Numbered from the stretch's first letter, positions 6,693 to 14,085 are shown. The stretch: 17,383 nt of DNA from Escherichia coli (GCF_003334255.1 NZ_QOWU01000075.1); one strand, 5' to 3'. Program-made: numbers and translations. Notes: generated by a model from the sequence alone, not told the origin.

Positions 6693-7670
6693 TTATTGCG
6701 CCTGCCAGAGAATGACAGCCGCCGTTACCAGCAAGTTGATCAGCGTCAGCGGCAGGCAGATTTTCCAGCCGAAGGACATTACCTGGTCATAACGCGGACG
6801 CGGTAACGACGCACGAATCAAAATGAACATCATCATAAAGAACGCGGTTTTCAGCGCGAACCAGATGAATGGCGGTAACAACGGGCCTTGCCAGCCACCG
6901 AAGAACAGCGTCACCATCAATGCAGAGATGGTCACAATCCCGATGTACTCACCCACGAAGAACAGACCGAACTTCATACCGGAATATTCAATGTGGTAAC
7001 CATCCGCCAGTTCCTGCTCGGCTTCCGGCTGGTCAAACGGGTGACGGTGACATACCGCCACGCCCGCGATGGCAAAGGTAATAAAACCAAAGAATTGCGG
7101 GATAACGTTCCACACATGCGCCTGGCTGTTGACGATGTCGGTCATGTTGAATGAACCGGCCTGCGCCACCACGCCCATCAAGGAAAGCCCGAGGAACACT
7201 TCGTAGCTCAGGGTCTGCGCAGAAGCACGCATCGCACCCAGCAACGAGTATTTGTTGTTACTTGACCAGCCCGCAAACAGCACCGCGTAAACCGCCAGAC
7301 CTGCCATCATCAGGAAGAACAAAATCCCGATGTTCAGGTCGGCAACCACCCAACCCGGACTGACTGGCACAATCGCAAAGGCCAGCAGCAGCGAGGTAAA
7401 GGCAATCATCGGTGCCAGGGTAAAGATGACGCGATCCGAGAATTTCGGGATCCAGTCTTCTTTAAAGAACATTTTGATCATGTCCGCAACCAGCTGGAGC
7501 GAACCGCCCCAGCCAACACGGTTAGGTCCGTAACGGTTCTGGAACAGACCCAGCAGGCGACGTTCGCCAAAGCTCATGAATGCCCCGCAGGTGACAACCA
7601 CCAGCAGGATCACCACCGCTTTGAGGATGGTCAGCAGGATCTCAATCAGTTCCGGTGATATCCAACTCAT
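6693..7670 (-). CDS. nuoH: NADH:quinone oxidoreductase subunit H (quinone-binding membrane subunit)
   Basis: 325-aa hydrophobic ORF; matches E. coli NuoH (ND1 homologue). Start overlaps the nuoG stop. Confidence 0.95.
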
Positions 7671-10393
7671 TGTTGTGCCTCCTTGAGATCCTCAAGATGC
7701 GCGCCAGCCAGCACCGGAGCAATGCCGGACATACCCATCGGCAAGCCCACCTGCCCTGCCGTCAGTCCTTCGGCGATTTCAACCGGCAGCGTGACCGTGT
7801 TGCCATCGTAACTAAAGGAGACGCGTGTACCTGCGTTCACACCCAACTTCGCGGCATCCGCTGGGTTGAGTTTGATGTACGGCTGCGGCATACGGCTCTG
7901 GAAGACCGGAGCACGCTGTGACAATTCATCGCTGCCAAACAGGTGGTAATACGGCGCGATACGCCATTTCCCGTCCTGCGGCTGGAAGCGTGCCGGTACG
8001 CTGGTGAAGTAATCCAGACCATTTTCGCTGGTTTCAAACAGACGCACGCCCGGATCGCCAAAGCGCAGTTTGCCGCCCACTTCGTCCTGGAATTTGTTCC
8101 ACGCCTGCGGGGAGTTCCAGCCCGGCGCCCAGGCAAACGGCACTTGCGAACGGTGCGCAGTCGGCTGGTTGTTACCTTCCATCGAGAAGGTGAACATGGT
8201 GTCAATATCCTGCGGCTGACGCGGCTCATGAACGCTGATATTGGCGCGCATGGCGGTACGACCGCTGTAACGGTGCGGTTCACGGGCCAGTTTCTGCCCA
8301 CGAATACGGAATGTCGCATCCGGCGCAGCATCTTTGATACCTGCCAGTTCCGGGATTTTCGCCACAACAGCGTCAATCACATGGTCGAGCTGCGTCCAGT
8401 CCACTTCACGGCTCAGCAGGGTGCTGTGCAGCGAGTGTAACCAGCGCCAGCTTTCCAGCATGACAGTTTTGCTGTCGTAATAAGCAGGATCGTAAACCTG
8501 GAAGAAACGTTGGGCGCGGCCTTCGTTGTTGATCACCGTACCGTCGCTTTCAGCAAAGCTGGCAGCAGAAAGTACCAGATGGGCGTTTTCCATAATCGCT
8601 GTGCGTTGATGATCAACCACCATCACCAGCGGTGCTTTAGCCAGCGCAGCATTCACGCGGATAGCAGAAGCGTGACGATGCAGATCGTTTTCCAACACCA
8701 CCACCGCGTCGGCGCGTCCGGTTTCCAGTTCGGTTAACGCTTCTTCAAGCGAACCGCCACCCATAATGCCCAGCCCCATGCTGTTGACGGAACGGGCAAT
8801 CATGGTGATACCGACGTCAGCGCCGCGACCTTTCAGGGCTTTCGCGACGTTAGCCGCCGCCTGAATCACCTCTAAGCTACCGGCGTTCGTCCCGGAGATA
8901 ATCAACGGTTTCTTCGCACCTGCCAGTGCCTGCACGATGACGTCGATTTTGCTTTGCAGCTCAGGTTCGATACCGTCAACCGCTGGTGCAGAGTTATCCA
9001 GCGCATGGGCGATGGCAAAACCTAAACGCGCCTGATCTTCAACCGGTGCGCGGTAAGTCCACGCCGCGATATCATCCAGACGGGTGTCATCAACGTTGGT
9101 AACAAACAGCGGATGCTTCGCACGTTGACCGATGTTGAGGATTGCCGCAATCTGCCAGTCAGCCACTTTCTGTGCTGCCGCCATTTCGCGCGCTTTACCT
9201 TTCACAGCCTGACGCACTGCCAGCGCGACGCGCGCGCCGGTCTGGGTAACGTCTTCGCCCAGCACCAGTACCGCATCGTAAGATTCGATTTCGCGCAGAG
9301 CCGGAGTATAAATGCCGCCTTCACGCAGCACTTTCAGCGCCAGTTGCAGACGTTCCTGCTCACCGTGAGCGATACCGGTGTAGAAGTTTTCTTCGCCCAC
9401 CAGTTCACGCAGCGCAAAGTTGCTTTCCACGCTGGCACGCGGAGAACCAATACCGATCACTTTCTTCGACTGACGCAGAATATCTGCCGCGCCCTGCATT
9501 GCCTGTTCGGCGTTGAGGGTAATGAAATCATCGCCACGACGCTGTACTGGCTGACGCGGACGATCCTTCAGGTTGACGTAACCGTAACCGAAACGACCAC
9601 GGTCGCAGAGGAAGTAGTGGTTTACCGTACCGTTGTAACGGTTTTCGATACGACGCAGTTCGCCGTAACGTTCACCGGGGCTGATGTTACAGCCGATGGA
9701 ACATTGCTGGCAGATGCTCGGCGCAAACTGCATATCCCATTTACGGTTGTAACGCTCGGAGTGCGTTTTGTCGGTAAATACGCCGGTCGGGCAAATTTCG
9801 ACCAGGTTACCGGAAAATTCGCTTTCCAGCGTGCCGTCTTCCGGGCGACCGAAGTAGACGTTGTCGTGCGCACCGTAAACGCCCAGATCTGTACCGTCAG
9901 CGTAATCTTTGTAGTAACGCACACAGCGGTAGCAGGCGATGCAGCGGTTCATTTCGTGAGAGATGAATGGCCCCAAATCCTGATTACGGTGGGTACGTTT
10001 GGTGAAACGGTAGCGACGGAAGCTGTGTCCGGTCATCACAGTCATATCCTGAAGATGGCAGTTACCGCCCTCTTCACATACCGGACAGTCGTGCGGGTGG
10101 TTGGTCATCAACCACTCGACCACGCTTTCACGGAACTGTTTCGCTTCTTCGTCGTCAATGGAAATAAAGGTGCCATCGGAAGCCGGTGTCATACAGGACA
10201 TCACCAGGCGACCACGCGTGTCTTCCGCGTTTTGGTATTGCTTCACCGCACACTGGCGGCAAGCACCGACACTTCCCAGCGCCGGATGCCAGCAAAAGTA
10301 AGGAATATCAAGGCCCAGAGACAGACAAGCTTCCAGCAGGTTGTCCGCTCCGTTGACCTCGTATTCTTTGCCGTCTACATGAATTGTAGCCAT
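7667..10393 (-). CDS. nuoG: NADH:quinone oxidoreductase subunit G (Fe-S, molybdopterin-oxidoreductase-like fold)
   Basis: Large ORF with N-terminal 2Fe-2S and 4Fe-4S cysteine clusters ([48 protein letters not shown]). The longest ORF starts at 10399 (MLMATIHV..., 910 aa); I prefer the ATG at 10391..10393 (MATIHV..., 908 aa) because a GGAAG Shine-Dalgarno lies about 8 nt upstream of it. Confidence 0.93.
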
Positions 10394-10445
10394 TAGCATG
10401 CTTCCAGTTTTCTCAGTCAGAGACTGAGCGTTAATCGAAATTCGG

Positions 10446-12280: not shown

Positions 12281-12282
12281 AA

Positions 12283-14085
12283 TTAGCGGTCCACATCTGA
12301 CATAACAAAATCGATACTGCCCAGATAAACAATCAGGTCAGACACCAGGCTGCCGCGGATCGCCGCCGGAATTTGCTGCAAATGCGCAAAGCTCGGGGTA
12401 CGAACACGGGTGCGGTAACTCATGGTGCTGCCGTCGCTGGTCAGGTAGTAACTGTTGATCCCTTTGGTCGCCTCAATCATCTGGAAAGATTCATTGGCAG
12501 GCATCACCGGACCCCACGACACTTGCAGGAAGTGGGTGATCAGGGTTTCGATATGTTGCAGCGTGCGCTCTTTCGGCGGCGGCGTGGTCAGCGGGTGATC
12601 CGCTTTGAACGGGCCTTCCGGCATGTTGTTGAGGCACTGCTCAAGAATGCGCAGACTCTGGCGCAGCTCTTCCACTTTAAGCATTACGCGGGTGTAGCAG
12701 TCAGAAACGCCACCACCCACCGGGATTTCAAAGTCGAAGTTTTCATAGCCAGAATAAGGACGCGCCTTACGCACGTCGAAGTCGATCCCGGTAGCACGCA
12801 GGCCCGCGCCAGTGGTGCCCCACTCCAGCGCCTCTTTCGCGCCATAGGCGGCAACGCCCTGGGAACGACCTTTCAGAATGGTGTTTTGCAGCGCCGCTTT
12901 CTCGTAAGACGCCAGACGTTTCGGCATCCAGTCGAGGAACTCACGCAGCAGGCGATCCCAGCCGCGCGGCAGGTCGTGCGCTACGCCGCCAATACGGAAC
13001 CACGCCGGGTGCATACGGAAACCAGTGATTGCTTCCACCAGATCGTAAATTTTCTGACGATCGGTAAAGGCGAAGAACACTGGCGTCATTGCGCCGACGT
13101 CCTGAATAAAGGTCGAGATATACAGCAGGTGACTGTTGATGCGGAACAGTTCGGAGAGCATAACGCGAATGACGTTAACGCGATCCGGCACGGTGATCCC
13201 GGCCAGTTTCTCTACCGCCAGCACGTAAGGCATTTCGTTAACGCAGCCGCCGAGGTATTCGATACGGTCAGTATACGGAATGTAGCTGTGCCAGGACTGG
13301 CGTTCGCCCATTTTCTCCGCACCACGGTGGTGGTAACCGATGTCTGGTACGCAGTCGACAATCTCTTCGCCATCGAGTTGCAAAACGATACGGAAAGCCC
13401 CGTGCGCCGACGGGTGGTTCGGACCGAGGTTGAGGAACATGAAGTCCTCGTTTTCGGTGCCGCGCTTCATCCCCCACTCTTCCGGTTTGAAGGTCAGGGC
13501 TTCCATCTCCAGATCCTGTTTGGCTTTGGTCAGCTCAAACGGCGAGAATTCGGTAGCGCGCGCCGGATAATCTTTACGCAGCGGGTGACCTTTCCAGGTT
13601 TGCGGCATCATGATGCGTCGCAGGTTCGGGTGACCGTCGAAAGTAATGCCAAACAGATCCCAGGTTTCACGCTCATACCAGTTAGCGTTCGGGAACAGTT
13701 TGGTGAAGGTCGGTACGTGCAGGTCGTTTTCTGCCAGCGCCACCTTCAGCATGATGTCGCGGTTACGATCGATAGAAATCAGATGGTAGAAAACGGAAAA
13801 ATCCGCGGCAGGTAACCCTTCGCGGTGTGTGCGCAGACGTTCGTCCATGCCGTGTAAGTCAAACAGCATGACGTAAGGTTTCGGCAGTTTCTTTAAGAAA
13901 TCGCCAACTTCCAGTAATTGTTCACGCTTGATCCACACAACGGGAACCCCGGTGCGAGTCGCCTGAACAGTAAAGGCATCCGGCCCAAAACGGTTGCGCA
14001 GTTCGCCAATCACCGGATCATCAAGATGATCGCGGGTCTGCCAGGCGGGTTCTTGCGCGGTTAAGTCGGTCATATTGTTCACCAT
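12283..14085 (-). CDS. nuoC: NADH:quinone oxidoreductase fused subunit C/D
   Basis: 600-aa ORF matching the fused NuoCD of E. coli (30-kDa-like N-terminal part plus 49-kDa/NiFe-hydrogenase-large-subunit-like C-terminal part). An alternative in-frame ATG at 14071..14073 (MTDLTAQ...) would give 596 aa. Confidence 0.94.

Follow-up and report, generated by a model that had tools for sequence, protein, structure and literature searches.

The main translation start of both nuoG and nuoCD in Escherichia coli is very probably the second of two neighboring in-frame ATG codons (hereafter ATG2), at positions 10393 and 14073 of the window, giving proteins of 908 (MATIHV) and 596 (MTDLTAQ) amino acids, respectively, rather than the upstream ATG (ATG1) with which the longest open reading frames begin. 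The window is the whole stretch of DNA analyzed (17,383 nucleotides; GCF_003334255.1 NZ_QOWU01000075.1), and positions are counted from its first letter. The assignment draws on the anatomy and conservation of the sequence together with published profiling of initiation sites and published N-terminal peptides, and for both genes the question is already settled on ATG2 by the re-annotation of the K-12 record between 2006 and 2014, ribosome profiling, and N-terminal proteomics. The finding is an ordinary one, since the curated K-12 annotation already gives the downstream ATGs.

The window contains the nuo operon of E. coli K-12 on the minus strand; positions 4228-17306 are identical to E. coli K-12 MG1655, and the nuoG and nuoCD junctions are 100% identical to those of thousands of E. 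coli genomes. The preliminary description had correctly located the longest minus-strand reading frames, 7667..10399 for nuoG (910 amino acids; ATG CTA ATG GCT ACA ATT CAT GTA, MLMATIHV) and 12283..14085 for nuoCD (600 amino acids; ATG GTG AAC AAT ATG ACC GAC TTA, MVNNMTDL), as well as the internal ATGs, which are confirmed to be in frame at 10393..10391 and 14073..14071 (minus strand). Among the genes of the operon, the longest reading frame departs from the curated start only in nuoG and nuoCD. As the chance of a nearby in-frame ATG is, by our own arithmetic, roughly 1/64 per codon, 2 such cases among 13 genes are unremarkable and not beyond chance. The features discussed below are collected in Table 1.

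Table 1. Coordinates of start codons, Shine-Dalgarno (SD) elements, and RNA features at the nuoG and nuoCD junctions.
Feature	Position in window	Strand	Evidence and remarks
nuoG CDS, main start, 908 aa, MATIHVDGK...	7667..10393	-	Equals curated b2283 (NC_000913.3 2397439..2400165) and PGAP WP_000190939.1; profiling +6 nt; ATG invariant in 79/79 species
nuoG ATG1, would give 910-aa MLMATIHV; not the main start	10397..10399	-	1 nt after GGAAG
GGAAG, SD-like element for nuoG ATG2	10401..10405	-	In 78/79 species, with a spacing of 7, 9, or 10 nt to the conserved ATG; forms the 3' terminus of the Rfam nuoG RNA consensus
nuoG RNA motif (Rfam RF01748), hairpin and flanks, nuoF-nuoG spacer	10401..10443	-	cmscan 50.3 bits (gathering score, 33); full model, 1-43 of 43
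nuoCD CDS, main start, 596 aa, MTDLTAQ...	12283..14073	-	Equals curated b2286 (2402055..2403845); N-terminal peptides; profiling +12 nt; ATG invariant in 75/75 species
nuoCD ATG1, a minor start at best (600 aa, MVNNMTDL)	14083..14085	-	PGAP start; one N-terminal peptide in 1 sample; U and G inside invariant UGGUGA
GGUGA, SD of nuoCD ATG2	14079..14083	-	Spacing 5 nt; pairs with UCACC of the 16S rRNA 3' end, -7.6 kcal/mol
Predicted structured RNA, nuoB-nuoCD spacer and first 7 nuoCD codons	14053..14177	-	-35.6 kcal/mol, z = -2.57
Closing helix of the spacer RNA	14177-14172 with 14058-14053	-	Predicted fold
Outer stem of the spacer RNA	14171-14164 with 14112-14105	-	Matched arms -17.9 versus mismatched -13.7 kcal/mol
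Inner hairpin of the spacer RNA	14151-14146 with 14126-14121	-	Compensatory changes in four inner-stem pairs
SD helix of the spacer RNA	14104-14099 with 14084-14079	-	Predicted fold
UCACCA, predicted cis partner of UGGUGA	14099..14104	-	E. coli minimum-energy fold and alignment consensus structure; its UCACC also occurs in the 16S rRNA tail

Shine-Dalgarno elements and conservation of the two starts

Both downstream ATGs are preceded, about 5-10 nt upstream, by an element complementary to the 3' end of 16S rRNA, the mark of an SD-led AUG start, the element of nuoG being weak. We infer that the nuoG element is GGAAG, in which GGA alone pairs (-3.3 kcal/mol) and which lies 7 nt from ATG2 and 1 nt from ATG1. 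The earlier view that the downstream ATG of nuoG has the better SD spacing is right, and the preference for this codon is supported. At 1 nt, GGAAG would be too close for ATG1 to be suited to SD-led initiation, and ATG1 would fall within the SD-to-start spacer. Across Enterobacterales, all 79 of 79 species have the downstream ATG; the upstream triplet is CAC-type or missing in 15 of them and frameshifted in 4, giving a total of 19 with no in-frame upstream ATG. A 3-nt difference in the length of the nuoG spacer (ATGCTA versus ATGCTGACT) was considered as a sign of coding and rejected, because Pantoea has an 8-nt version and 14 species have CAC in place of ATG.

At nuoCD, the preliminary description saw no strong SD sequence before either start, which is wrong for ATG2: the GGUGA element would pair with the rRNA at -7.6 kcal/mol, compared with -3.2 kcal/mol for GGA, the best site available to ATG1. 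GGTGA is invariably present, 5-9 nt before ATG2, in 75/75 species, and none of the 72 aligned sequences departs from TGGTGA, in whichever frame it stands with respect to nuoCD. The downstream ATG is likewise invariant in 75/75 Enterobacterales species, and codons +1 and +2 of nuoCD vary only synonymously; in 15/74 species, no in-frame ATG reaches nuoCD, 14 of them having an in-frame stop between. Because ATG1 overlaps the invariant UGGUGA, a ribosome paired to this SD could not place ATG1 in the P site. The GTG at 14082 was rejected as a nuoCD start, being inside GGUGA and without an SD of its own. In both genes, the conserved SD-like element would stand at a working distance from the downstream ATG only, and the upstream ATGs appear not to be under selection as starts.

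Published initiation sites and N-terminal peptides

Initiation at ATG2 is documented in the literature by ribosome profiling for both genes and by N-terminal peptides and Ribo-RET for nuoCD. Tetracycline-arrested ribosomes reach at least 10-fold the depth of the old start at both downstream ATGs (Nakahigashi 2016, PMC4909307, Table S2), with depths at the new site of 78.9/70.8/81.5 for nuoG, whose two ATGs are only 6 nt apart, near the resolution limit of ribosome profiling, and of 63.2/58.0/45.9 for nuoC. In that study, the starts lie +6 nt (nuoG) and +12 nt (nuoC) from the 2006 annotation, and manual inspection is marked "not tested" for both genes. The K-12 record carried the long forms in 2006, and the 2014 record moved the starts by the same +6 nt (nuoG) and +12 nt (nuoCD).

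The short-form N-terminal peptide of NuoCD was found in 4 samples and the MVNN long form in 1 (Nakahigashi 2016, Table S4). TRAINSPOTTER 2026 (PMC13245402, Table S1) lists two short-form NuoCD N-terminal peptides at NC_000913:2403843-2403845, corresponding to window positions 14071-14073, records support from Ribo-RET, and gives no row with an alternative start of nuoC. For NuoG, TRAINSPOTTER has no b2283 row and Nakahigashi Table S4 no ATIHVDGK peptide, and the nuoG start hence rests on profiling, conservation, and SD geometry. Longer N-termini, which the preliminary description had named as the observation that would speak against the downstream ATGs, are thus on record once, for NuoCD, in the single sample above.

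A search of the open-access literature gave no usable N-terminal sequences, from Edman degradation or otherwise, of NuoG or NuoCD. The supplements of a Salmonella riboproteogenomics study (PMC11005335) and of Giess 2017 (PMC5576327) contain no nuoG or nuoC entries, the main text of EcoGene 3.0 mentions neither nuoG nor nuoCD, and a RyhB ribosome-profiling paper, in which the nuo genes appear only as repressed targets, has nothing about their starts. The numbering of the cryo-EM model covers residues 1-907 of 908 in NuoG and 9-596 of 596 in NuoCD.

A predicted structured RNA in the nuoB-nuoCD spacer

The upstream ATG of nuoCD might be conserved as part of a regulatory RNA, a reading that we consider possible but doubtful. 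UCACCA would pair with UGGUGA, hiding both the SD and ATG1, and translation of nuoCD would then need this helix to open, for example through ribosomes that end nuoB and melt the closing helix near the nuoB stop. The pairing is present in the E. coli fold, in the alignment consensus, and in 44/54 single-species folds, with a mean pairing probability of 0.91 for GGUGA versus 0.17 for the nuoCD ATG2; however, the five pairs of the SD helix are nearly invariant on both sides, and the few changes are all one-sided, C to U, with no double compensatory change. Covariation is seen in the surrounding stems. Furthermore, GCGCA in nuoCD codons 6-7, which pairs in the E. coli fold with UUGCGC just past the nuoB stop, shows no change in any of the 54 species, even at the silent third position of its Ala codon. 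Against this, a helix of 6 bp around a 14-nt loop may have little strength in vivo, UGGUGA occurs without UCACC in Erwiniaceae and Yersiniaceae, and the regulatory role is a prediction.

We tentatively suggest that the nuoB-nuoCD spacer of Enterobacteriaceae may be an undescribed structured RNA of ~125 nt, in which UCACCA would copy the flank of the rRNA anti-SD and mask the nuoCD SD together with the upstream ATG, and the closing helix would join the nuoB stop region to nuoCD codons 6-7, so setting NuoCD output relative to NuoB. The spacer has no match in Rfam at E <= 1, and our literature search on its structure returned nothing relevant, PMC4448311 naming the operon in a table footnote only. 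If real, the RNA would explain both the conservation and the rare use of the upstream ATG, and masking of the nuoCD ribosome-binding site would bear on subunit stoichiometry in the 13-gene operon.

Possible minor initiation at the upstream ATG of nuoCD

The ratio of short-form to long-form samples is consistent with ATG2 as the major start of nuoCD and a possible minor use of ATG1. Since the long-form peptide was detected once, ATG1 is not silent in every condition, and low-level initiation there may give a minor MVNN-extended form in E. coli. It is rather unlikely, though, that such dual initiation, with a major 596-aa and a minor 600-aa form, is kept by selection in Enterobacteriaceae. All 60 of 60 species with the 12-nt arrangement have ATG1 unchanged and in frame, but the ATG is no less conserved in Erwiniaceae, in which it stands in another frame and an in-frame stop comes after it; for this reason, its conservation is explained by the invariant UGGUGA and not by coding. 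Both N-terminal peptides are in Nakahigashi 2016 Table S4, under the class "2006 and new(2014)", but the long one is confined to its single sample and is absent from TRAINSPOTTER, which does list alternative starts. All of the variation in the two codons separating GGUGA from ATG2 is non-synonymous (5 and 3 amino acids). The added residues are free to vary, one among N/K/R/S/I and the other among N/T/I, and residues 1-8 of NuoCD are disordered in the structure. As a start, ATG1 is not conserved: in Erwiniaceae, Serratia, and Chimaeribacter, it is either in a different frame or has an in-frame stop after it, and its best SD is only GGA.

Disagreement among databases and structures

The start ambiguity put forward in the preliminary description exists in practice, since databases disagree on the lengths, but it is not an open one, published data having settled it. 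The proposed comparison with curated E. coli starts gives the downstream ATG for both genes, NC_000913.3 listing 908 amino acids for NuoG and 596 for NuoCD. RefSeq genomes annotated by PGAP, the automatic annotation pipeline of NCBI, have 908 and 600 amino acids, respectively, and the PGAP protein WP_000247879.1 (600 amino acids), found in all four such genomes sampled, is probably an over-long NuoCD. In the PDB, NuoG has 905, 908, or 910 and NuoCD 596 or 600 amino acids (NuoCD/NuoG: 596/908 in 7awt and 7nyr, 600/905 in 7p61, and 600/910 in 9taj); these sequences were left out as start evidence because they are set by the depositor's reference. That the true primary products are the long forms, a view that the longest reading frames, the PGAP NuoCD model (4/4 sampled genomes), 7p61 and 9taj, and the lone MVNN peptide might suggest, is highly improbable: it is contradicted by the short-form N-terminal peptides and ribosome profiling, all experimental and comparative evidence for the downstream ATGs opposes it, the PDB sequences are depositors' choices and not measurements, and a long form is impossible in 15 (nuoCD) and 19 (nuoG) species because these have no in-frame upstream ATG.

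The offsets between long and short forms, 4 residues in NuoCD and 2 in NuoG, make residue numbers differ from one complex I structure or paper to the next. The value of the start assignment is practical only, and complex I biology is unaffected.

Comparison with known systems

SD-sequestering hairpins occur in polycistronic mRNAs and are used in translational coupling. The nuoB-nuoCD spacer is likewise predicted to have an upstream complementary segment that pairs with the SD and leaves the start codon open; it would differ in that the sequestering segment shares its five bases with the rRNA anti-SD flank, and in its long-range closing helix into codons 6-7.

The nuoF-nuoG spacer contains a full-length match to the nuoG RNA motif RF01748 (Weinberg et al. 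2010, PMC2864571), whose 3' end, UGGAAG, would be the SD of the main nuoG start. The table of that study gives its function as unknown and rates it only as a likely RNA and likely cis-regulatory. By inspection of the species listing, its stem alters on both sides between species (for example, CTCAGT/ACTGAG, CTCGGT/ACCGAG, CCTGA/TCAGG, and CCCGG/CCGGG). About 30/79 species depart from the motif in having no 5' GATTAAC part, and still keep GGAAG and the ATG.

With E. coli genes known to have closely spaced in-frame dual starts (rstA, manZ, treB, and others; Nakahigashi 2016 Table S4; proteoforms in TRAINSPOTTER 2026), nuoC shares its class in that table and peptides from both starts, the downstream one being more frequent; it differs in that its upstream start shares bases with the SD of the downstream one and, beyond Enterobacteriaceae, is not conserved as a start. 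Finally, the junction DNA is identical to that of curated E. coli K-12 MG1655 nuoG (b2283, NP_416786.4) and nuoC (b2286, NP_416789.2), whose curated starts correspond to window positions 10393 and 14073. There is no biological difference from the curated record, and it is only the longest-reading-frame interpretation, the PGAP nuoC model WP_000247879.1, and some PDB entries that differ from it.

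Locus and start-codon pairs

The window contains the Escherichia coli nuo operon (nuoN to nuoA) and lrhA, all on the minus strand, and is identical to K-12 MG1655 over positions 4228-17306; NC_000913.3 positions were converted by subtracting 2389772. The longest ORF departs from the curated start in only 2 of the 13 nuo genes, nuoG and nuoCD (nuoC in some records), each with an upstream and a downstream in-frame ATG (ATG1 and ATG2). The ORF and ATG coordinates given in the preliminary description for both genes proved exact when the ORFs were re-read from the window. The final 77 bases are not those of MG1655 but correspond to the terminus of an IS1 element, approximately 440 bp upstream of lrhA, which places an IS1 insertion in the lrhA-alaA spacer of the source strain. 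This junction was not found as a single uninterrupted match among complete RefSeq E. coli genomes.

Features of the start regions and their surroundings (window coordinates)
Feature	Position	Strand	Description
nuoG longest ORF	7667..10399	minus	910 aa; starts ATG CTA ATG GCT (MLMA...)
nuoG ATG2	10393..10391	minus	
nuoCD longest ORF	12283..14085	minus	600 aa; starts ATG GTG AAC AAT ATG ACC (MVNNMT...)
nuoCD ATG2	14073..14071	minus	
AGCATGCT	10394-10403	minus	includes nuoG ATG1; 8-base palindrome
RF01748 motif	10443..10401	minus	nuoF-nuoG spacer; 50.3 bits
nuoB-nuoCD spacer	14053-14177	minus	predicted three-way structure
Closing helix	14177-14172 with 14058-14053	minus	UUGCGC (right after nuoB stop) with GCGCAA (nuoCD codons 6-7)
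Outer stem	14171-14164 with 14112-14105	minus	
Inner hairpin	14151-14146 with 14126-14121	minus	CUUCGC with GCGAAG
SD helix	14104-14099 with 14084-14079	minus	UCACCA with UGGUGA
IS1 end	17307-17383		

Published initiation and N-terminal data

The preliminary description had treated the choice of start as an open matter, whereas the curated record and the literature have already settled on ATG2 for both genes. Using ribosomes arrested with tetracycline, Nakahigashi et al. (2016; PMC4909307) profiled translation starts and compared them with the 2006 K-12 annotation, in which both genes had the long forms. Their Table S2, restricted to sites with a mean depth at least 10-fold above the old start, gives new ATG starts at +6 nt for nuoG and +12 nt for nuoC. 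Ribosome depths at the new starts in the three samples were 78.9, 70.8, and 81.5 for nuoG and 63.2, 58.0, and 45.9 for nuoC, and both shifts were also made in the 2014 GenBank and EcoGene revision (Table S3). In the N-terminal proteomics of the same study (Table S4), the NuoCD short-form peptide was recovered in 4 samples and the long-form MVNN peptide in 1, with nuoC classed as “2006 and new(2014)”. TRAINSPOTTER (2026; PMC13245402) reports two NuoCD N-terminal peptides at NC_000913:2403843-2403845, which corresponds to nuoCD ATG2, and notes Ribo-RET support for this start; its table contains no alternative-start row for nuoC and no row for nuoG. In the peripheral-arm cryo-EM model (2.1 Å), numbering runs 1-907 of 908 for NuoG and 9-596 of 596 for NuoCD; because the NuoCD N-terminus is disordered, the structure cannot choose between the 596- and 600-aa forms.

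The nuoG junction

For comparison, both nuo junctions were located in 80 Enterobacterales loci retrieved around NuoF, each from a different species. ATG2 of nuoG is invariant (79/79 species), and GGAAG precedes it by 7, 9, or 10 nt in 78 of the 79; in one further locus the motif is wholly missing. In E. coli, GGAAG lies 7 nt from ATG2 versus 1 nt from ATG1, bearing out the better Shine-Dalgarno (SD) spacing previously attributed to the downstream ATG. With the SD paired, only ATG2 would be able to reach the P site. In some species the nuoG ATG1 triplet reads ACG.

Sequence variants between GGAAG and nuoG ATG2
Spacer	Species	Upstream ATG
CATGCTGACT	28	in frame
CATGCTA	25	in frame
CACGCTA	12	absent
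CATGTTCACT	7	in frame
CATGTCACT	4	out of frame
CACGCAA	2	absent

The nuoF-nuoG spacer corresponds to the Rfam nuoG RNA motif (RF01748), the 3' end of which, UGGAAG, is used as the nuoG SD. The 5' GATTAAC part of the motif is missing in approximately 30 of the 79 species, which have an A/T-rich spacer instead and retain GGAAG and the ATG. The GGAAGCAYGCT block is conserved above the rest of the spacer.

The nuoCD junction

The preliminary description saw no strong SD at either nuoCD start. This is wrong for ATG2, since GGUGA, located 5 nt from it, forms a -7.6 kcal/mol duplex with UCACC in the 3' tail of 16S rRNA. ATG1 lies 5' of GGUGA, and its own best SD element is GGA (-3.2 kcal/mol). Across species, GGTGA (75/75, 5-9 nt ahead) and ATG2 (75/75) are both retained, and no block of the start region other than TGGTGA and TATGAC is invariant; overlap with the SD block accounts for the conservation of the upstream ATG. 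At a distance of 14 nt, the upstream ATG of Erwiniaceae falls out of frame, and an in-frame TAA intervenes before the gene. Serratia and Chimaeribacter either carry GTG in its place or lack it, and they too have an in-frame stop. Stops of this kind ahead of ATG2 occur in 14 loci altogether. In Pantoea, Erwinia, and Mixta (loci L069-L083), a mini-ORF of 5 codons (ATG GTG AGT AAC GTA TGA) begins at the conserved upstream ATG, approximately 14 nt ahead of the nuoCD start; its TGA overlaps the nuoCD ATG as ATGA, a layout characteristic of translational coupling.

In the 60 species that share the E. coli arrangement, nearly all variation in the two codons separating GGUGA from ATG2 is non-synonymous (AAC/AGA/AAA/AAT/ATT/AGT in one, AAT/ATT/ACT in the other), whereas every change at codons +1 and +2 is synonymous (ACC/ACT, GAC/GAT); as read from the alignment, this indicates that coding constraint on nuoCD starts at ATG2. 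The lone MVNN peptide suggests that ATG1 is used for initiation at a low level, independently of an SD. A selected dual-start function is unlikely, given that the extension varies and is not conserved beyond Enterobacteriaceae.

Predicted RNA structure of the nuoB-nuoCD spacer

The spacer folds in silico at -35.6 kcal/mol (z = -2.57). Compensatory changes occur at 4 pairs of the inner hairpin; matched outer-stem arms pair at -17.9 versus -13.7 kcal/mol for mismatched arms (47 distinct arm pairs); and GCGCA of the closing helix is invariant in 54/54 species, silent codon position included. These data point to a conserved multi-helix RNA with covarying stems in Enterobacteriaceae. The SD helix is present in the alignment consensus and in 44 of the 54 single-species folds, with predicted pairing probabilities of 0.91 for GGUGA and 0.17 for ATG2; none of its pairs has changed on both sides in a compensatory manner, and its role accordingly stays a prediction. 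An Rfam scan of the spacer gave no match, and a literature search returned no paper on its structure.

Annotation and structure records

The start ambiguity noted in the preliminary description is real as an annotation problem, because the records disagree on protein lengths. The curated NC_000913.3 has NuoG of 908 aa and NuoCD of 596 aa, whereas RefSeq genomes annotated by the NCBI automatic pipeline (PGAP; sampled for nuoC in 4 genomes and nuoG in 2) have 908 aa (WP_000190939.1) and 600 aa (WP_000247879.1). The respective lengths are 908 and 596 aa in PDB entries 7awt, 7nyr, and 7z7r, 905 and 600 aa in 7p61, and 910 and 600 aa in 9taj; deposited sequences are the depositor's choice of reference rather than a measurement. 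Residue numbers are therefore shifted by 2-4 between E. coli complex I entries, and the practical value of the finding is a caution about residue numbers in complex I and about the 600-aa NuoCD annotated by PGAP.
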